DNA of 64,000 bases from Escherichia coli (GTDB lineage: Bacteria; Pseudomonadota; Gammaproteobacteria; Enterobacterales; Enterobacteriaceae): the NCBI RefSeq assembly GCF_030013595.1, contig NZ_CP122768.1. The stretch is one strand, 5' to 3'. The notes beneath the pieces are model-generated. The model was not told the origin of the DNA. It ran no database searches and saw nothing but the letters and a program-made list of their open reading frames with translations. The position numbers were made by a program, and so were the translations under genes. Below are positions 19,359-29,577 of the stretch, piece by piece. Within the stretch, counting starts at the first letter, position 1, and the number at the start of each line of letters is the position of its first letter.

Positions 19359-20930
19359 TCAGGTCACCGGTGCCGGGTTAAACACCGCCAGCTGGTTATG
19401 CAGTCCCCATTGATCTGAGAAGGTTTTCTTCTTCCCGCTGGCGACGTCGAGAATAAAGTGGAACAACTTCCAGCCCACCTCTTCAATGCTCTCTTCGCCG
19501 GTAGCGATAGTGCCCGCGTTAATATCCATTAAATCAAACCAGCGGTTCGCCAGCTCGGTGCGGGTCGCCATTTTAATGACGGGTACCGCCATCAGGCCGT
19601 ACGGCGTACCACGGCCGGTCGTAAACACTTGCACGGTAATCCCTGAAGCCACCTGTTGTGTGCCACAGACAAAATCGCTGGCTGGCGTCGCGGCGTAAAT
19701 TAATCCGCGTTTAGTCGGGCGTTGACCGGGCGACAGCACTTCAACAATTGCGCTTTTACCCGATTTAGCAATGGAGCCGAGCGCTTTCTCCACCACATTT
19801 GCCAGACCGCCTTTCTTGTTGCCCGGCGAAGGGTTGGCGCTGCGGTCGGTTTTTCCCATATTGAGATAGTTATCGTACCACTCCATCTCCTCCAGCAGCC
19901 GTTTGCCGACCTCTTCGTTCACTGCGCGTGGTGTCAGCAGATGGATCGCGTCACGCACTTCCGTGACTTCTGAAAACATCACCGTTGCGCCGCAGCGCAC
20001 CAGTAGATCAGACGCATACCCAACCGCCGGGTTTGCCGTTACGCCAGAAAACGCATCGCTGCCGCCGCACTGCATGCCGACAACCAGTTCTGAAGCCGGA
20101 CAGGTTTCTCGCTGCCGTTGATTCAGTTTGTGCAAATGGCGTTCGGCGACCTGCAAAATATCCTCGACCATGGACTGAAAGCCGACATGCTTTTCATCCT
20201 GCAAACTGACAATGCTGGCGCTTTCTACTGGAATAGCTTGCACATCATCCGTTCCAGTCAGCAGGCGCTCAGGCTGCAACTTTTCACAACCCAGACCAAT
20301 CACCATTACTTCGCCGCCAAAGTTAGGGTTCAGCGAAATATTGTGGATGGTACGAATAGGCACAACTGCCGCCGGTGCATTAATCGCCACGCCACAACCG
20401 TACAAATGATTCAGCCCCACCACGCCATCGACGTTCGGGTATTTCGGTAGCAGATCGCGTTCAATGATTTTTACTACATAGTCCACCACGCCTGCTACAC
20501 AGTGGACGCTGGTGGTGATGCCGAGCAGGTTTTTAGTGCCCACGCTGCCATCGGCATTGCGATAGCCCTCAAAGGTGTATCCTTCCAGCGGCGGTAAGGG
20601 GTCCGGGACTTTGGTTGCCAGTGGCAGCGTGTGTAACGGCGGCGCTTCCGGTAGTACAACCATTGATTCGTCGATCCAGCTTCCGCGTGGGATTGCGCGC
20701 ACGGCGTAACCAATCACTTCGCCATAACGAATAATTTCACCATTAGCCGGAATGTCCAGCAATGCGACTTTATGCCCCTGGGGAATATGTTCAATTAATT
20801 CCAGCCCATCCGGAAAACGCGTTCCTGCTTTCAGGCCATTATCATTAACAATAATTGCCACATTATCTGTGTCGTGAACTTTTATATAAAACGCAGTTGG
20901 CGTTTCTTGTCTGATTTCGATGTTGGCCAT
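19359..20930 (-). CDS. garD: Galactarate dehydratase GarD (523 aa)
   Basis: ORF 19359..20930; UxaA-family (SAF + dehydratase) sequence paralogous to UxaA at 53823. Confidence 0.9.
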
Positions 20931-21304
20931 TGTGCAATATTCTCCAGCCAGGGGTTATTAAAATGAGGACCTGGTCTCATTTAAAAATAAATGACTTCAT
21001 TGGGTGAAATAAGAATGTCAGGAGTTTAAACGCAGAAATGTGATCAATGTCAATCATTTCAGGGATTGCAGTGCCGCACGGTAAGGTAAAGCGCAAATCT
21101 GTGCTTTAGCGCGCAACCTTATGTGCATATGCTCAAAATAATATTTAAATAATATTAATTAAATTAGCATTTGCACAATGATTATTATTCTCGCGCTGCT
21201 TATACTAATTCCCGAGTTCATTGCCGTAACGGTATAAATAAAACTCATAAATAACACCTTCCCCATAATAATAAAAATCAGCATAAGTACCCGAGGTAAA
21301 TAAA
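20931..21304. promoter_or_regulatory. Divergent garD / garPLRK control region
   Basis: 374-bp AT-rich spacer between divergent operons; CdaR-dependent promoters expected here; sites not individually resolved. Confidence 0.45.
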
Positions 21305-22639
21305 ATGATTCTGGACACCGTTGACGTAAAAAAGAAAGGCGTGCATACCCGCTATTTAATATTACTGATTATTTTTATTGTTACCGCCGTTAACTACGCC
21401 GATCGTGCAACGCTGTCTATTGCTGGTACCGAAGTGGCAAAAGAGTTGCAGTTAAGTGCGGTTTCGATGGGTTACATCTTCTCCGCTTTTGGCTGGGCCT
21501 ACCTGCTGATGCAAATCCCCGGCGGCTGGTTGCTTGATAAGTTTGGCTCGAAAAAAGTTTACACCTACAGCCTCTTTTTCTGGTCGCTGTTCACCTTCCT
21601 GCAAGGCTTTGTTGATATGTTCCCGTTGGCCTGGGCAGGGATCTCCATGTTCTTTATGCGCTTTATGCTCGGCTTCTCGGAAGCGCCATCATTCCCGGCG
21701 AACGCCCGTATTGTCGCCGCCTGGTTTCCGACAAAAGAACGTGGTACTGCCTCCGCCATCTTTAACTCGGCGCAATATTTCTCGCTGGCGCTCTTTTCGC
21801 CGCTGCTTGGCTGGCTGACTTTCGCCTGGGGCTGGGAGCACGTCTTTACCGTTATGGGGGTAATTGGTTTTGTGCTGACGGCGCTGTGGATCAAGTTGAT
21901 TCATAACCCGACAGATCACCCACGTATGTCTGCGGAAGAGCTGAAGTTTATCTCAGAAAATGGCGCGGTGGTCGATATGGACCACAAAAAGCCGGGCAGT
22001 GTGGCAGCAAGCGGTCCCAAGCTGCATTACATCAAGCAATTGCTCTCTAACCGCATGATGCTGGGCGTATTTTTCGGACAATATTTTATCAACACCATCA
22101 CCTGGTTCTTCCTCACCTGGTTCCCAATTTATCTGGTGCAGGAAAAAGGCATGTCGATTCTGAAAGTGGGTCTGGTCGCCTCGATTCCGGCACTGTGTGG
22201 CTTTGCGGGCGGCGTGCTGGGAGGTGTCTTCTCGGATTATCTGATCAAACGCGGTTTGTCCCTGACCCTGGCACGTAAGCTACCGATTGTGCTGGGAATG
22301 TTGCTGGCTTCCACCATCATCTTATGTAACTACACCAACAACACCACGCTGGTGGTCATGCTGATGGCGCTGGCTTTCTTTGGCAAAGGATTTGGTGCGC
22401 TGGGCTGGTCAGTGATTTCTGACACCGCGCCGAAAGAGATTGTTGGCCTCTGCGGCGGCGTCTTTAACGTCTTTGGCAATGTTGCCTCCATTGTCACTCC
22501 ACTGGTGATTGGCTATCTGGTAAGTGAACTGCACTCCTTCAATGCAGCACTGGTTTTCGTGGGATGTTCAGCGCTGATGGCGATGGTCTGCTACCTCTTC
22601 GTAGTTGGCGACATTAAACGTATGGAATTGCAGAAATAA
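21305..22639 (+). CDS. garP: Galactarate/glucarate/glycerate MFS transporter GarP (444 aa)
   Basis: ORF 21305..22639; MFS anion:cation symporter sequence. Confidence 0.9.
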   Translation: MILDTVDVKKKGVHTRYLILLIIFIVTAVNYADRATLSIAGTEVAKELQLSAVSMGYIFSAFGWAYLLMQIPGGWLLDKFGSKKVYTYSLFFWSLFTFLQGFVDMFPLAWAGISMFFMRFMLGFSEAPSFPANARIVAAWFPTKERGTASAIFNSAQYFSLALFSPLLGWLTFAWGWEHVFTVMGVIGFVLTALWIKLIHNPTDHPRMSAEELKFISENGAVVDMDHKKPGSVAASGPKLHYIKQLLSNRMMLGVFFGQYFINTITWFFLTWFPIYLVQEKGMSILKVGLVASIPALCGFAGGVLGGVFSDYLIKRGLSLTLARKLPIVLGMLLASTIILCNYTNNTTLVVMLMALAFFGKGFGALGWSVISDTAPKEIVGLCGGVFNVFGNVASIVTPLVIGYLVSELHSFNAALVFVGCSALMAMVCYLFVVGDIKRMELQK

Positions 22640-24441: not shown

Positions 24442-25587
24442 ATGAAAATCGTAATCGCCCCAGACTCTTATAAAGAAAGTTTATCTGCCAGCGAGGTTGC
24501 GCAGGCGATAGAAAAAGGATTTCGGGAAATTTTTCCTGATGCACAGTACGTTTCTGTTCCGGTTGCCGACGGTGGCGAAGGAACGGTGGAAGCGATGATT
24601 GCAGCCACCCAGGGTTCCGAACGTCACGCCTGGGTTACAGGGCCGTTGGGCGAGAAAGTGAATGCCAGTTGGGGGATCTCCGGCGATGGCAAAACCGCGT
24701 TTATTGAAATGGCGGCGGCCAGTGGGCTGGAGCTGGTACCTGCGGAAAAACGTGATCCACTCGTGACCACTTCACGCGGCACAGGCGAGTTAATTCTGCA
24801 GGCGCTGGAGAGCGGCGCGACAAACATTATTATCGGCATTGGCGGTAGCGCTACAAATGATGGCGGCGCAGGCATGGTACAGGCGCTGGGGGCGAAATTA
24901 TGCGACGCCAACGGCAATGAAATTGGTTTTGGCGGCGGTAGTCTTAATACTCTGAATGATATTGATATTTCCGGCCTCGATCCGCGCTTAAAAGATTGCG
25001 TCATTCGCGTCGCTTGTGATGTCACCAATCCGCTGGTGGGTGATAACGGCGCATCGCGCATCTTTGGCCCACAAAAGGGAGCCAGTGAAGCGATGATTGT
25101 CGAGCTGGACAATAACCTCTCTCACTATGCCGATGTCATTAAAAAAGCGCTGCATGTTGATGTGAAAGATGTCCCCGGCGCAGGAGCTGCGGGTGGTATG
25201 GGCGCGGCGCTGATGGCGTTTCTTGGTGCAGAACTGAAAAGTGGTATTGAAATAGTCACTACGGCGCTGAATCTGGAGGAACATATTCACGATTGTACGC
25301 TGGTGATCACCGGTGAAGGGCGTATTGACAGCCAGAGTATACACGGCAAGGTTCCGATTGGCGTCGCAAACGTGGCGAAAAAGTACCATAAACCGGTTAT
25401 TGGCATTGCGGGTAGCCTGACCAATGATGTTGGCGTTGTACATCAGCATGGCATTGATGCGGTCTTCAGCGTATTGACCAGTATTGGTACGTTGGACGAA
25501 GCATTCCGCGGGGCTTATGACAATATTTACCGTGCTTCACGTAATATCGCCGCGACACTGGCGATTGGAATGCGCAACGCGGGGTGA
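24442..25587 (+). CDS. garK: Glycerate 2-kinase GarK (381 aa)
   Basis: ORF track 24361..25587; start trimmed to MKIVIAPDSYKESLSA (glycerate kinase family N-terminus). Confidence 0.85.
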   Translation: MKIVIAPDSYKESLSASEVAQAIEKGFREIFPDAQYVSVPVADGGEGTVEAMIAATQGSERHAWVTGPLGEKVNASWGISGDGKTAFIEMAAASGLELVPAEKRDPLVTTSRGTGELILQALESGATNIIIGIGGSATNDGGAGMVQALGAKLCDANGNEIGFGGGSLNTLNDIDISGLDPRLKDCVIRVACDVTNPLVGDNGASRIFGPQKGASEAMIVELDNNLSHYADVIKKALHVDVKDVPGAGAAGGMGAALMAFLGAELKSGIEIVTTALNLEEHIHDCTLVITGEGRIDSQSIHGKVPIGVANVAKKYHKPVIGIAGSLTNDVGVVHQHGIDAVFSVLTSIGTLDEAFRGAYDNIYRASRNIAATLAIGMRNAG

Positions 25588-25619: not shown

Positions 25620-25996
<377 letters not shown>

Positions 25997-26004
25997 TTTT
26001 ACGT

Positions 26005-26036
26005 AAAAACCCGCTTCGGCGGGTTTTTGCTTTTTG
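26005..26036 (+). terminator. Intrinsic terminator of rnpB
   Basis: aaaaacccgc-ttcg-gcgggttttt hairpin followed by gcttttt immediately 3' of M1 RNA. Confidence 0.7.
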
Positions 26037-26102
26037 GAGCATAGTGTAAGATGAATAAATATCTACGGTATTAATAATAGACTTTGTAAGAAGTTATTAA
26101 GT

Positions 26103-27290
26103 CTATATTGCATTTAAAAGGTCGTAATCATACGTATAGTCCTCTCTGGTAAAATATTGCTTCTCTGAGTTATAAGCTTCATATGTGTTATATTTTACGA
26201 CCTCAAAGCAATTGTCTGGAGAATTTTCGTCTTTCTCGAGTGTATTATCTGGAAGGAATTCCTCTGAGCTAGAGTCCTCTATGTTTAAATCTGTATTGTA
26301 ATTAATGTTTGGATCGATCAGATAAGCATTTTCTTTGACGCTTTCATAATCTTTAATGATTATATCGATGTAATAATCTATTTTTTCTAATGAGAATACT
26401 TTCATCTCTGGTAATTTAATTCTGTTCAAGTAATTGTTAATTTTCGATGAGCTTTTATATATTTCTTTTGTTAATTCATTTTCTAATTCATCTGTTAGAG
26501 TTGCTCTTGGTATAGATTCTATAATTGCAAGTCTCATAATTTTTAATTGTTCTTCGGTAATATCTCCAAGCGCATTTAAACAACTTTCGACAAGCTTAAT
26601 TTTTTCTTCAGAATACATATCGTTAATGCTTGTTATAACAGGCGTTATTTTTAGTAAATAATCCCATGAGATTGTGGCGTTTTGTTTTGAACTAACGAAA
26701 TTTACCTGAAACATGTTGGCATTAGTAAAATCTGTGTCATCCAATTTAAAAGGATTTAAAATTGTATTGGCCATATGTTTATCTGTAAAATCATAAAGTT
26801 CTAAATCGACATTCCGTAAGTCCAGAGAGGATAGATCAACTATACCTCCAGTCCCACAACTAAAGATTACGTTCAACCTCCTGATTTCATTGTAAATGTC
26901 TTTCAATGGGCAATTAACATTGATATTGCCTGTGGATATTTCCTGGTTTTTTAACGGTTCATTAATTGTAAGTTCACAGGTATTGTCTGATCGTTGAATA
27001 ATTCGGGCGTTATAACCAAAAAAATCCATACGAAGAGAGGAGTCATTATAAAGAATTACATTTTGTAAGTACGCTAATTCTTTTTGAAAATCACCAGTGA
27101 TAACACATTTCCCACCTGGTTGTAACGCGTTAAGTAAAGTGACCATTTCAATAGAGGTCTGTTTTAGTTTTTCTATGCCTGGTGCTAGTGCTTCGAGGTT
27201 ATTTCCTATGGGGCTTTCAGGAAGGTCATTCATTTTTCGACGGGCTAAATCACTACTAATATCATTACCAATTGATGAAACAGGTGACAT
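26103..27290 (-). CDS. yhaC: Uncharacterized protein YhaC (395 aa), low-GC gene
   Basis: ORF 26103..27290; Asn/Asp/Ile-rich with pentapeptide-repeat-like central region; AT-rich codon usage unlike neighbours. Confidence 0.8.
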   Translation of the reverse strand: MSPVSSIGNDISSDLARRKMNDLPESPIGNNLEALAPGIEKLKQTSIEMVTLLNALQPGGKCVITGDFQKELAYLQNVILYNDSSLRMDFFGYNARIIQRSDNTCELTINEPLKNQEISTGNINVNCPLKDIYNEIRRLNVIFSCGTGGIVDLSSLDLRNVDLELYDFTDKHMANTILNPFKLDDTDFTNANMFQVNFVSSKQNATISWDYLLKITPVITSINDMYSEEKIKLVESCLNALGDITEEQLKIMRLAIIESIPRATLTDELENELTKEIYKSSSKINNYLNRIKLPEMKVFSLEKIDYYIDIIIKDYESVKENAYLIDPNINYNTDLNIEDSSSEEFLPDNTLEKDENSPDNCFEVVKYNTYEAYNSEKQYFTREDYTYDYDLLNAI

Positions 27291-27301
27291 TATTTTATCC
27301 T

Positions 27302-27910
27302 TTATAAATAATCAATAAAAATCATTATTAAAATGATCGGGTGAAAAAAAGAGAATTTGCCAACAATCTGAAGGAATGGAGGTTTTATTAAAGTACGTAG
27401 GGGGGTTAAGATGGCTTCTTTTCGGGTGAATTTTGCACAATACTTAGAAATCGTCTCCTTAATACACTCCAGCTCTTTTTTATTGACGGCTGAGCAAGTA
27501 CATTGTTCGCCAAAAGGTGCAAAAGTGCCTACATCTAATGTTTGTATGATATAATCGTCATGTTCTCCTGTAGAAATATCTATGATGAATGGACTCATAT
27601 TTTCCGGTTGGATTCGAATCATGACAGAAGGAACATCGCCTTGATAGAAATTCAATGCAGTAATTGCAGATAATACTCTCCGCAGTTCATTACTTATACT
27701 GTATATTTTATTAACGTCATTGGTGGAGACAATTTCTGCAAACTTTCTTTTTACCGTCCAATAATCAATATTTCTGTTGTGATTGTTAACCACTGCGTGC
27801 ATTGGCGGGATTGAAGGGTGAAAAATATGTGCAATTGGGAAGCCTTTCATTGATGCCTGCCTTGTCATCATGACAAACAATAATAGATGCTTATTTTCCT
27901 CGCACGGCAC
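27302..27910 (-). CDS. yhaB: Uncharacterized protein YhaB (start codon uncertain; ORF 202 aa)
   Basis: ORF 27302..27910; AT-rich; several in-frame ATGs near 5' end so the true start may be up to 60 nt internal. Confidence 0.65.
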   Translation of the reverse strand: MPCEENKHLLLFVMMTRQASMKGFPIAHIFHPSIPPMHAVVNNHNRNIDYWTVKRKFAEIVSTNDVNKIYSISNELRRVLSAITALNFYQGDVPSVMIRIQPENMSPFIIDISTGEHDDYIIQTLDVGTFAPFGEQCTCSAVNKKELECIKETISKYCAKFTRKEAILTPLRTLIKPPFLQIVGKFSFFHPIILIMIFIDYL

Positions 27911-28105
27911 TTTCGCACTATCAAAAAACGCTCATTTACCCGGCATTACAGTAAACGAAGCAACATTCTGTGGCCTACGCCGATCAAAAGCTCTGTGAAA
28001 ATTTCCCTTGTTGTCTTTGTCTGACCTTATCGCGGCGACCAGCAATTATTCGTTTTGTGATCCTCAACACAAAATGCTATTCGTCGCCTATGAGGGGAGA
28101 GGAAT

Positions 28106-28324
28106 TTATGGAAAACGATTGCATTCACAAAATGACGCCCTGTCAGAAGAGAAAAAGTTGACGTTAATCAATTGTTCGAGATGATCAATACCTGTATTCG
28201 AAATTTTAAAATATTGATAAAATAAATGTTTGTTCTCCAACAAATAACGTGAAAAAATGTGACGTGCCGCATTATTTATCGCTGAAATTGGTTTATTTAT
28301 AATAAAATTTGAGAACTTGCTCAT
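28106..28324 (-). CDS. tdcR: Small regulatory protein TdcR (72 aa), divergent from tdcA
   Basis: ORF 28106..28324; position upstream of and divergent from tdcABC as in K-12. Confidence 0.7.
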   Translation of the reverse strand: MSKFSNFIINKPISAINNAARHIFSRYLLENKHLFYQYFKISNTGIDHLEQLINVNFFSSDRASFCECNRFP

Positions 28325-28638
28325 TAAATTTAACTAAAATTTAGCCTGGTAATTATCCGGTAATTGCTTGAAATATGGTCTCAGCCCCTTTTTTGTATTA
28401 ACCACATAACGAATGATGTTATCGCCATAAAATATGGTTATCCCCGTCATTTTTTTTGACAAAAATCAGGGTTTATGCTGATTTTTATACCTTAACTTGT
28501 TGATATATAAAGATATTTAATTGTAATAACGATACCCTGGAAAGTATTGAAAGTTAATTTGTGAGTGGTCGCACATATCCTGTTCATTTCATTTTGATAC
28601 ACTTCATGCCGTCACTGAGGTAATTAACGTAGGTCGTT
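28325..28638. promoter_or_regulatory. tdc operon promoter/control region (CRP, IHF, TdcA, TdcR-dependent)
   Basis: 314-bp AT-rich region upstream of tdcA; identity by position; individual sites not mapped. Confidence 0.5.
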
Positions 28639-29577
28639 ATGAGCACTATTCTTCTTCCGAAAACGCAGCACCTGGTAGTCTTTCAGGAAGTCATTAGAAG
28701 TGGCTCTATCGGCTCGGCTGCAAAAGAATTAGGGTTAACTCAACCGGCCGTCAGTAAAATCATTAACGATATTGAAGATTATTTTGGCGTGGAATTAGTG
28801 GTGCGGAAAAATACCGGTGTAACACTAACACCTGCCGGTCAATTGTTACTCTCCCGTTCCGAATCCATTACCCGTGAAATGAAAAATATGGTTAATGAGA
28901 TAAGCGGTATGTCTTCTGAGGCAGTGGTGGAAGTCTCATTTGGTTTTCCTTCATTGATTGGTTTTACTTTTATGTCCGGGATGATCAACAAGTTCAAAGA
29001 GGTGTTCCCGAAAGCGCAGGTTTCTATGTATGAAGCGCAACTGTCTTCGTTCTTACCGGCAATCCGCGACGGTCGACTGGATTTTGCGATTGGTACGTTA
29101 AGCGCAGAAATGAAGCTTCAGGATTTACATGTTGAGCCGCTGTTCGAGTCCGAGTTTGTGCTGGTAGCCAGTAAGTCCCGAACATGCACCGGCACCACCA
29201 CGCTGGAGTCGTTGAAGAACGAACAGTGGGTGTTGCCACAAACCAATATGGGGTACTACAGCGAGCTGCTCACCACGTTACAAAGAAATGGCATCAGTAT
29301 TGAAAACATCGTTAAAACCGACTCAGTCGTGACAATTTATAATCTTGTTCTCAATGCTGATTTCTTAACTGTAATTCCTTGTGATATGACATCACCTTTT
29401 GGTTCTAATCAATTTATTACTATTCCGGTTGAAGAAACATTACCTGAGGCACAATATGCCGCGGTATGGTCGAAAAATTATCGTATTAAAAAAGCAGCAT
29501 CGGTTTTGGTGGAATTAGCCAAAGAGTATTCATCTTATAATGGGTGTAGACGAAGGCAATTAATTGAAGTTGGTTAG
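28639..29577 (+). CDS. tdcA: LysR-type transcriptional activator TdcA (312 aa)
   Basis: ORF 28639..29577; N-terminal LysR HTH. Confidence 0.9.
   Translation: MSTILLPKTQHLVVFQEVIRSGSIGSAAKELGLTQPAVSKIINDIEDYFGVELVVRKNTGVTLTPAGQLLLSRSESITREMKNMVNEISGMSSEAVVEVSFGFPSLIGFTFMSGMINKFKEVFPKAQVSMYEAQLSSFLPAIRDGRLDFAIGTLSAEMKLQDLHVEPLFESEFVLVASKSRTCTGTTTLESLKNEQWVLPQTNMGYYSELLTTLQRNGISIENIVKTDSVVTIYNLVLNADFLTVIPCDMTSPFGSNQFITIPVEETLPEAQYAAVWSKNYRIKKAASVLVELAKEYSSYNGCRRRQLIEVG

Follow-up and report, generated by a model that had tools for sequence, protein, structure and literature searches.

The AT-rich stretch between rnpB and tdcA in the 64-kb window (the whole stretch of Escherichia coli DNA that we analyzed) consists of two adjacent parts with two histories: a yhaC-yhaB insert and an ancestral tdc control region (Table 1). 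We consider it likely that positions ~26068 to 28040 are an old foreign insert carrying two co-oriented orphan genes, yhaB and then yhaC, and that positions 28040 to 28638 are the ancestral control region. The initial annotation had proposed horizontal acquisition of the whole yhaC-yhaB-tdcR islet. This holds for yhaC and yhaB, which are limited to Escherichia and extreme in composition, but not for tdcR and the tdcR-tdcA spacer, which are homologous across the family; the gene identities and order it gave were recovered with Rfam, NCBIfam, and the ORF list. The stretch is in itself ordinary and largely published before. The idea of foreign origin is not new, as K-12 yhaC and tdcR have been listed as predicted foreign and H-NS bound (PMC3661553). 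The observation itself is of minor importance, K-12 yhaC and yhaB having been catalogued before as young, predicted-foreign, H-NS-bound orphans.

Table 1. Features of the rnpB-tdcA region (window coordinates)
Feature	Position	Strand	Basis
rnpB, RNase P RNA gene, left anchor of slot	25620..25995	+	Rfam RF00010, 317.5 bits, full length
rnpB 3'-terminal core GAACCCGGCTTATCGGTCAGTTTCA, attachment site in related genomes	25968..25992	+	Single copy in window
rnpB intrinsic terminator	26003..26036	+	Terminator scan
Escherichia-specific insert: yhaC, yhaB, yhaB 5' region	~26068..28040 (approximate borders)	.	Homology and haplotype divergence
yhaC, 395 aa, orphan, short pentapeptide-repeat segment, acidic tail	26103..27290	-	NF007262
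yhaC codons 151-200, ten in-register pentapeptide repeats	26691..26840	-	Period-5 run, profile matches
yhaB, 182 aa in this strain, starts MKG	27302..27850	-	ORF list, homologues, alignment
Ancestral AT-rich block: tdcR and tdc control region	28040..28638	.	blastn across Enterobacteriaceae
CRP-binding sequence reported for K-12, listed under yhaB	28053..28073	-	Exact match
tdcR, 72-codon ORF	28106..28324	-	NF008507
FNR ChIP-associated site reported for K-12, listed under yhaB	28153..28176	-	Exact match
tdcA	28639-29577	+	

We measured base composition in sliding windows and used GC3 in place of the Sharp-Li CAI as the measure of codon usage. The GC content of positions 26040 to 28640 is 33.7%, compared to 50.8% for the whole window; this is the minimum among all 2.6-kb windows of the 64 kb, about 4.6 sd lower than their mean (0.507, sd 0.037). 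By feature, GC is 0.324 for yhaC, 0.354 for yhaB, 0.301 for tdcR, and 0.322 for the tdcR-tdcA spacer. GC3 is 0.281, 0.324, and 0.306 for the three genes, versus 0.576 ± 0.061 (minimum 0.409) for the 51 other ORFs of the window. Both measures agree with the sharp drop relative to the flanks described in the initial annotation (GC3, rounded, 0.28 to 0.32 versus 0.58 ± 0.06). With a GC content of 0.32 to 0.35 versus 0.51 and variable presence within Escherichia, yhaBC combines the atypical composition and patchy distribution by which islands are recognized. However, the neighboring ancestral DNA is equally AT-rich, which weakens composition as a sign of foreignness.

The block at 28040 to 28638 is homologous (59 to 88% nucleotide identity) across Enterobacteriaceae that lack yhaBC, and equally AT-rich there (gap GC 0.32 to 0.37). 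With blastn, identity was 60 to 86% across some 600 bp in Escherichia, Citrobacter, Enterobacter, and Salmonella; genera farther away gave partial matches. Because it is homologous and AT-rich in species without yhaBC, this block is ancestral regulatory DNA outside the acquired islet. It probably represents a vertically inherited tdc control region with CRP and FNR sites: the CRP site is identical to a K-12 Footprint-seq table entry (PMC12871828), and the FNR site, which lies inside the tdcR ORF, is identical to a K-12 ChIP-associated site (PMC1802558). We found tdcR at full length in five Escherichia representatives that were translated or matched by tblastn (the ATG was seen in the two translated). 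It lacks a start codon in E. albertii, and other genera carry homologous DNA in which its frame is interrupted; its dN/dS of 0.71 to 1.16 is nearly neutral. An open tdcR frame probably appeared in Escherichia within the ancestral control region. A near-neutral frame open only in Escherichia calls into question the status of tdcR as a regulator protein. Neither tdcR nor the tdc promoter region should be classed as acquired.

The gene order garK-rnpB-gap-tdcA-tdcB is kept in many genera, with an AT-rich basal gap of 645 to 850 bp (GC 0.32 to 0.37), and yhaBC is absent from all non-Escherichia species that keep it. The rnpB terminator forms one border of the insert and the block homologous in all genera the other; past the insert, homology restarts at window positions 28033 to 28053 in Citrobacter, Enterobacter, and most Escherichia sister species. 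We detected no homology between the insert (~26068 to 28040) and the non-Escherichia gaps. Between the same rnpB-tdc boundaries, 15 other Enterobacteriaceae species carry unrelated cargo of 2 to 9 kb, including a PAAR-pyocin DNase toxin, chaperone-usher fimbriae, a mannose-type PTS operon, a decarboxylase cluster, an MCP, and regulators. T6SS toxins occupy the slot in Citrobacter and Leclercia. We found no kinship of YhaB or YhaC to its cargo in other species. The rnpB-tdc slot thus emerges as an insertion hotspot across Enterobacteriaceae.

Several related genomes point to how cargo reaches this slot. In C. amalonaticus L059, an 8.4-kb insert carrying a decayed integrase lies between 25-nt direct repeats of the rnpB 3' end. 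Copies of the rnpB core also border a 7.7-kb integrase/primase-helicase element (E. coli L073) and a toxin cassette (Leclercia L064). At the rnpB site, integrases occur in L003, L073, and L059; in every one of the 11 E. coli genomes with the integrase in full, and in one with a truncated copy, it adjoins rnpB. Other genera have one to four rnpB core copies. The rnpB 3' end and terminator form a unit that is repeated in tandem in K-12 L002 (113 bp × 3.5, TRF) and is present once in our window; the 113-bp repeats downstream of E. coli rnpB were reportedly first described in the 1980s. Judging from these sequences, the rnpB 3' end (the last 25 nt or so) is an active attachment site in related genomes, and the slot probably owes its repeated use as a landing site across Enterobacteriaceae to these nucleotides serving as attB for tyrosine-integrase elements. 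The initial annotation had named rnpB as an integration landmark, a view upheld by the direct repeats flanking integrase elements in E. coli and Citrobacter and by the 15 species with slot cargo; a literature search on rnpB as an integration site returned nothing relevant in the papers covered.

In our window, we found no integrase between rnpB and tdcA, no second rnpB core (up to three mismatches allowed), and only short chance-level matches among direct or inverted repeats around the insert, which leaves site-specific entry a presumption for yhaBC itself. Rfam (E up to 1) and ARAGORN detected no RNA gene beyond rnpB and its terminator. As to mode and date, we infer that the insert probably came in at an early stage of the Escherichia lineage, into the slot directly downstream of the rnpB terminator, and that any integrase and flanking repeat may since have been lost.

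Named homologues of YhaC and YhaB were all from E. coli or Shigella (5.8 billion protein clusters, 1.84 billion representatives searched), and both genes are Escherichia-only and not conserved across Enterobacterales, the phylogenetic distribution that the initial annotation had proposed to check. Phages, true plasmids, and viral contigs yielded no donor; apparent "plasmid" matches to yhaBC proved to be mislabelled chromosomes or chromosome-like records. With no donor or outside homologue, what speaks for a foreign source is distribution and composition. The yhaB-yhaC pair is present in 4,319 of 5,426 E. coli genomes, a deletion remnant in 1,061 (about 20%, with EPEC E2348/69 [O127:H6] among the strains with a deletion), and a haplotype with 63% YhaC identity at the same locus in 19. 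This three-state polymorphism of two deep haplotypes and a deletion is a convenient lineage marker. Six other Escherichia representatives have either no yhaBC or a remnant: E. albertii retains the yhaB 5' end (72.6% over 135 nt, E 1e-17) and Escherichia sp. L006 a 76-nt piece of yhaC. The site is cleanly empty in four Escherichia species representatives, yet a remnant persists in E. albertii, which is more distant; several losses or within-genus transfer are therefore needed. Given these remnants and a haplotype dS of about 0.56, the "ancient" acquisition of the initial annotation is plausible.

Published K-12 data bear on silencing. The 78 promoter islands listed for K-12 include one inside yhaC and one at tdcA/tdcR (PMC3661553, Table 1). 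The yhaC island was H-NS bound in all ChIP studies compared and the tdcA/tdcR island in two of three, and both were predicted foreign by GIST, Nakamura et al., and Lawrence & Ochman (PMC3661553); the H-NS occupancy that the initial annotation had proposed to look for is thus on record for K-12. H-NS coats the insert in K-12, so poor expression is to be expected. These data come from another strain, however, and for the strain studied here silencing is something we infer.

Between E. coli haplotypes the insert region is hyperdivergent, and the locus has a mosaic allele beside the deeply divergent haplotypes. The two haplotypes differ by a dS of about 0.56, and the ORFs stay open across a dS of 0.56 to 0.60, where dN/dS is 0.31 to 0.38. 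With a dN/dS of 0.30 to 0.38 for yhaC and 0.31 to 0.46 for yhaB, 5 to 20 times that of neighboring genes, both evolve as real but weakly constrained coding genes. We regard it as possible, although doubtful, that they are instead functionless, pseudogene-like relics kept because H-NS-silenced DNA is nearly cost-free. Such relics would fit the elevated dN/dS, the deletion to remnants seen in 1,061 of the 5,426 E. coli genomes, and the absence or remnants in six other Escherichia representatives, as well as the internal stop annotated in yhaC of L073, the many truncated YhaC clusters, the several frameshift versions of the YhaB C-terminal third, and the IS elements found inside the locus in some strains. 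However, frames of 395 and 180 codons have remained open at a dS of about 0.56 despite stop-prone AT-rich DNA, dN/dS is clearly below 1, and the YhaC N-terminus and YhaB residues 1 to 125 are nearly invariant. Under the foreign-insert reading, yhaBC would now be a decaying accessory module, under weak purifying selection where retained and highly polymorphic. It offers a small test case for the persistence and decay of silenced orphan genes.

YhaC matches NCBIfam NF007262 at full length (859.5 bits, residues 1 to 395, curated cutoff 765) and is rich in L (10.6%), N (10.1%), I (9.9%), E (8.4%), and D (8.1%). Residues 151 to 200 form ten consecutive pentads with L, F, or M at the center (VDLSS LDLRN VDLEL YDFTD KHMAN TILNP FKLDD TDFTN ANMFQ VNFVS), in keeping with the family pattern of D or N before a hydrophobic central residue, a period-5 run matched by 0 of 20,000 shuffles; this upholds the pentapeptide-repeat-like core reported in the initial annotation. 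Outside its own family, the YhaC profile matches only genuine pentapeptide-repeat proteins (8 of 8 checked were confirmed by Pfam), through profile positions of about 140 to 210 and with E values reaching about 1e-10. Pfam itself scores YhaC below gathering thresholds (PF13599, 14.9 bits versus 38; PF00805, 12.9 versus 20.2). Sequence and profile searches of the PDB gave only weak matches (E of at least 0.014), those to pentapeptide proteins covering residues 151 to 198 with E of only 0.04 to 1.4, and AF2 on nine sequences gave an unusable model (mean pLDDT 31.4). The nearly invariant N-terminus is Ser-rich (14% over the first 50 residues), with Pro and Val at positions 3 and 4. From its sequence, YhaC most likely folds around a short pentapeptide beta-helix (about 2.5 turns), which would be flanked by lineage-specific domains and an acidic tail. 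Architectures of this kind are typical of interaction proteins that mimic protein or DNA.

For YhaB, the initial annotation saw no recognizable domain, and our Pfam search agrees; its database tag, PF27690 (UCP004546), is the uncharacterized YhaB family itself. In the alignment, residues 1 to 125 are conserved, while the C-terminal third differs by frameshift between alleles; AF2 on eight sequences reached a pLDDT of 39.0. Searches with YhaB and YhaC returned no PADLOC-DB 2.0 match below E 0.028 for either haplotype, no PHROGs match, and nothing in Pfam/NCBIfam except their own families and the sub-threshold pentapeptide matches. Our best guess is that yhaB-yhaC is what remains of an interaction or effector-like module, now silenced and decaying, a weak guess because both AF2 models are poor and the Pfam pentapeptide scores are sub-threshold.

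Three further readings address function and origin. It seems unlikely that the pair, as fossil cargo of an rnpB-targeting integrative element, survives as a conflict module, an effector- or immunity-like pentapeptide pair held in very old, possibly trans-specific haplotypes under diversifying selection; if so, the 113-bp repeats downstream of E. coli rnpB would be scars of repeated attachment-site use. Quite unlikely, in our view, is a conflict module under diversifying selection, in which YhaC would be a cryptic protein of the EspX/PipB2 type, either secreted or interacting with host, phage, or competitor, and YhaB its partner or chaperone. The YhaC pentapeptide segment is as short and degenerate as that of EspX1, itself sub-threshold in Pfam, the N-terminus is Ser-rich, one locus has both deep haplotypes and a mosaic allele, T6SS toxins share the slot in Citrobacter and Leclercia, and a 92-genome scan placed yhaC among the top positive-selection genes (PMC9110714). 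However, hhalign of YhaC with EspX1 (ECs_0025) aligns 32 repeat columns only (probability 0.3%), PADLOC and PHROG matches to YhaC are lacking, and average dN/dS is 0.3 to 0.4, not above 1. Moreover, EPEC E2348/69, which uses the LEE type III system, has the deletion, and K-12, which is not known to have a working type III system, keeps yhaBC. Birth of yhaB and yhaC in place, like tdcR, from an expanded AT-rich noncoding spacer is very unlikely: the ancestral gap is AT-rich in every genus, tdcR looks like a near-neutral ORF opened only in Escherichia within ancestral DNA, no homologue or donor was found in any search, and AF2 gives neither protein a confident fold, but the extra DNA, roughly 2 kb, shows no detectable resemblance to the ancestral gap, random AT-rich DNA would hardly yield ten pentads matching a genuine family (E about 1e-10), dN/dS of 0.3 to 0.4 over a dS of about 0.56 indicates long-standing coding constraint, and the segment sits exactly at the mobile-cargo site of other species.

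The locus can be compared to three known systems. Like the pentapeptide-repeat proteins (PF00805, PF13599; including PipB2 and EspX), YhaC has ten A(D/N)LXX-like pentads with a hydrophobic center and a profile that cross-matches genuine family members, and the espX genes, like yhaC and yhaB, are AT-rich and lineage-restricted; YhaC differs in its sub-threshold Pfam scores, its mere 2.5 or so helical turns, and its lack of homology to EspX1 outside the repeats. As in the E. coli promoter islands of Shavkunov and Ozoline (PMC3661553), the yhaC 3' half and the tdcA/tdcR region are AT-rich, H-NS bound, and foreign-gene-associated; both are classed as foreign-gene-associated there, whereas here the tdcA/tdcR island lies in DNA ancestral to Enterobacteriaceae. 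Finally, yhaBC resembles the H-NS-silenced islets at stable RNA genes (tRNA/tmRNA att sites) in lying directly 3' of such a gene and in its AT bias, lineage-restricted orphan cargo, and K-12 H-NS binding. It differs in being anchored at rnpB and in being an insert of about 2 kb with two genes whose integrase and repeats would have been lost, whereas the rnpB site of related genomes shares with those islets both the integrases and the direct repeats of the RNA gene 3' end.

Gene calls from open reading frames and family profiles agreed with the coordinates in the initial annotation (table below). The window is E. coli DNA, with a swine isolate as best match (99.9% identity). The GC content of 26040-28640 is 33.7%, compared to 50.8% across the window, and is the minimum among all 2.6-kb windows (mean GC 0.507, sd 0.037). 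GC3 is 0.281 in yhaC, 0.324 in yhaB, and 0.306 in tdcR; the 51 other ORFs have a GC3 of 0.576 ± 0.061, the lowest being 0.409. By both sliding-window GC and GC3, the sharp drop in composition described earlier is real. A second AT-rich dip (about 20800-21400, GC about 0.36-0.38) lies at the divergent garD/garP intergenic region, for which a CRP site is listed in PMC12871828.

Features of the rnpB-tdc locus in the window
Feature	Position	Strand	Remarks
garK	24442-25587	+	
rnpB	25620-25995	+	Rfam, 317 bits
rnpB terminator	26003-26030		follows rnpB
yhaC	26103-27290	-	395 aa; NF007262, 859 bits
yhaB	27302-27850	-	
tdcR	28106-28324	-	NF008507
tdcA, tdcB		+	

We surveyed the locus by a TdcA scan of one genome per species, which returned 64 loci. 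The order garK-rnpB-gap-tdcA-tdcB is kept in Citrobacter, Salmonella, Enterobacter, Lelliottia, Kluyvera, Trabulsiella, Yokenella, Pseudocitrobacter, Silvania, and others. In the surveyed genera, the basal rnpB-tdcA gap is 645-850 bp long with a GC content of 0.32-0.37, and no yhaB or yhaC was found within these gaps. By blastn, each of these genera has a homologue of 28040-28638 (tdcR with the spacer up to tdcA); identity is 80-88% in the other Escherichia and 59-69% in Citrobacter, Salmonella, and Enterobacter, and more distant genera match in part. Because this block is homologous and the basal gap is AT-rich without yhaBC, the islet as first delimited merges two histories. Judging from these alignments, the extra DNA comprises about 26068-28040 only, and the tdcR/promoter part is ancestral regulatory sequence, vertically inherited, whose AT-richness is uninformative on transfer. 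The proposal that the whole islet was acquired horizontally is thus upheld for yhaC-yhaB, as Escherichia-only extra DNA, and not for tdcR and its promoter region, homologous across genera. The published K-12 CRP site (PMC12871828; 28053-28073) and FNR-associated site (PMC1802558; 28153-28176) are identical in the window, both inside the ancestral block. Enterobacterial tdc loci are also present on three contigs with the taxon labels Bacteroides, Chryseobacterium, and Clostridium (L004, L039, and L063); L004 and L063 are explicitly uncultured/MAG records, and the L004 TdcA is 100% identical to that of E. coli. Faulty binning or contamination most likely accounts for these taxon labels.

Within the ancestral block, the tdcR frame is open only in Escherichia (locus comparison, L005-L056). 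The Escherichia representatives examined have it at full length, with E. albertii lacking a start codon, and no open frame was found in the homologous DNA (59-66% nucleotide identity) of Citrobacter, Salmonella, and Enterobacter. The dN/dS of tdcR is 1.16 compared to K-12 and 0.71 compared to haplotype B, a rare E. coli version of yhaBC. tdcR has been reported as an 'activator'. These ratios, together with a frame limited to Escherichia, suggest either that tdcR arose recently or de novo as an ORF, or that the 'activator' effect is not protein-borne.

In 15 other species, unrelated cargo of 2-9 kb fills the slot that begins at the rnpB terminator and ends where the conserved block starts, including chaperone-usher fimbriae, a mannose-family PTS operon, an amino-acid decarboxylase cluster, a chemoreceptor, DeoR and LysR regulators, and a PAAR-pyocin S-colicin DNase toxin, which is probably a T6SS effector. 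The toxin occurs in two Citrobacter species (L017:868-2502 and L023:7347-8990) and in Leclercia (L064:7178-8440), where copies of the rnpB core, the last ~25 nt of the gene, lie on both flanks of the cassette. In Citrobacter amalonaticus, an insert of 8.4 kb that carries a decayed integrase lies between direct repeats, 25 nt long, of the rnpB 3' end. E. coli YZ22PE67 carries a 7.7-kb element between rnpB and yhaC (L073:20069-27800; core copies at 20046 and 27800) encoding a tyrosine integrase, a primase-helicase, a recombinase, and a zinc-ribbon protein. The integrase adjoins rnpB in 11/11 E. coli genomes with a full copy and in one truncated copy, and the attR copies of E. coli and C. amalonaticus have a common G-to-C variant (CGCCTTATCGG). 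Given the shared slot, the integrases, and the core repeats in relatives, the suggestion that rnpB is an integration landmark is directly supported for the site; it does not extend to the yhaBC insert itself, at which no integrase or flanking repeat was found in the window. The 7.7-kb element, which is inserted into the rnpB 3' end, was seen in the genomes of 11-12 chicken and pig E. coli; integrases are present at this site also in L003 and in C. amalonaticus (L059). Downstream of rnpB in K-12, a 113-bp unit consisting of the rnpB 3' end and terminator is present in 3.5 copies (L002:2781-3173), and this array may be a scar left by use of the att site; the copy number of this repeat is 1-4 across genera and one in the window (25949-26067).

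In a search of 5.8 billion protein clusters, all source-named YhaC and YhaB homologues were from E. coli or Shigella, and when 1.84 billion representatives were searched exhaustively with a HMMER profile, the result was one full-length YhaC cluster plus fragments. No donor was found in phage, plasmid, and viral-contig searches. Remnants persist in E. albertii, which has the yhaB 5' end (72.6% across 135 nt, E 1e-17), and in Escherichia sp. MOD1-EC7003, which has a 76-nt piece of yhaC; the representatives of four other Escherichia species have a clean empty site. The yhaB-yhaC operon has been placed in phylostratum 9 of 11 (PMC12218254).

Of the complete E. coli genomes, 5,426 in number, 4,319 have yhaC-yhaB; nearly all of these are 93-100% identical to the window, and 252 are below 90%. 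Another 1,061, among them the type strain ATCC 11775, carry a two-deletion remnant in which YhaC codons 91-111 are fused next to YhaB codons 1-31; O127:H6 has a short yhaBC fragment only. Haplotype B, with 63% YhaC identity, occupies the same locus in 19 genomes, and hyperdivergence between the haplotypes begins at the rnpB terminator and ends within tdcR, with flanks 96-100% identical. The YhaC allele P0028 looks mosaic, its N-terminal two-thirds resembling the common haplotype and its C-terminal third the rare one, which indicates recombination between the two.

The main rival to a retained function is that yhaB-yhaC is a functionless relic. Signs of decay are plentiful: besides the deletions, there are an annotated internal stop in the yhaC locus of one strain, many truncated YhaC clusters, and IS621 or IS1 within the locus of some E. 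coli strains (matches H8 and H24). The C-terminal third of YhaB (~50 residues; 27302-27470) differs by frameshift between alleles, with three or more versions (alignment A2), giving the window strain a hydrophobic tail and K-12 a different ending. The window differs from haplotype B with a dS of 0.56 in yhaC and 0.60 in yhaB, compared to 0.05-0.13 in garK, tdcA, and tdcB; frames that stay open in AT-rich DNA at such dS argue for coding constraint. The dN/dS values (yhaC 0.38 and yhaB 0.31 against haplotype B; 0.30 and 0.46 against K-12), next to 0.00-0.06 for neighboring genes, imply that this constraint is far weaker than on the neighbors. yhaC has also been listed among the top positively selected genes (PMC9110714).

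K-12 'promoter islands' lie inside yhaC and at tdcA/tdcR (PMC3661553, Table 1); H-NS occupies the yhaC island in all ChIP studies compared there and the tdcA/tdcR island in 2/3, and both count as foreign in the predictions of GIST, Nakamura et al., and Lawrence & Ochman. H-NS binding, which had been put forward as a check on the islet, is thus documented for yhaC in K-12. On the most likely account, yhaC-yhaB is a foreign insert of two genes that entered a hotspot next to rnpB long ago and that is silenced by H-NS, under weak constraint, very polymorphic, and in the process of loss. The foreign-gene interpretation is already in the literature for K-12.

YhaC residues 151-200 form ten in-register pentads (VDLSS LDLRN VDLEL YDFTD KHMAN TILNP FKLDD TDFTN ANMFQ VNFVS), a run whose length was reached in 0/20,000 shuffles. 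Outside its own family, the YhaC profile matches only long multi-repeat proteins, and 8/8 of those checked are Pfam-confirmed pentapeptide-repeat proteins; the pentapeptide-like core noted earlier is borne out by these results, with a sub-threshold Pfam score for YhaC itself. In the remainder, the first 140 residues are conserved, residues 205-325 make up a helical region, and the tail is acidic; no relatives were detectable outside residues 151-200. Mean AF2 pLDDT is low (YhaC 31, YhaB 39), and neither protein matched defense-system or phage-family models. Our preferred guess, a weak one, is a pentapeptide-helix interaction or effector-like role for YhaC. We found no likeness to EspX1 beyond the repeats.
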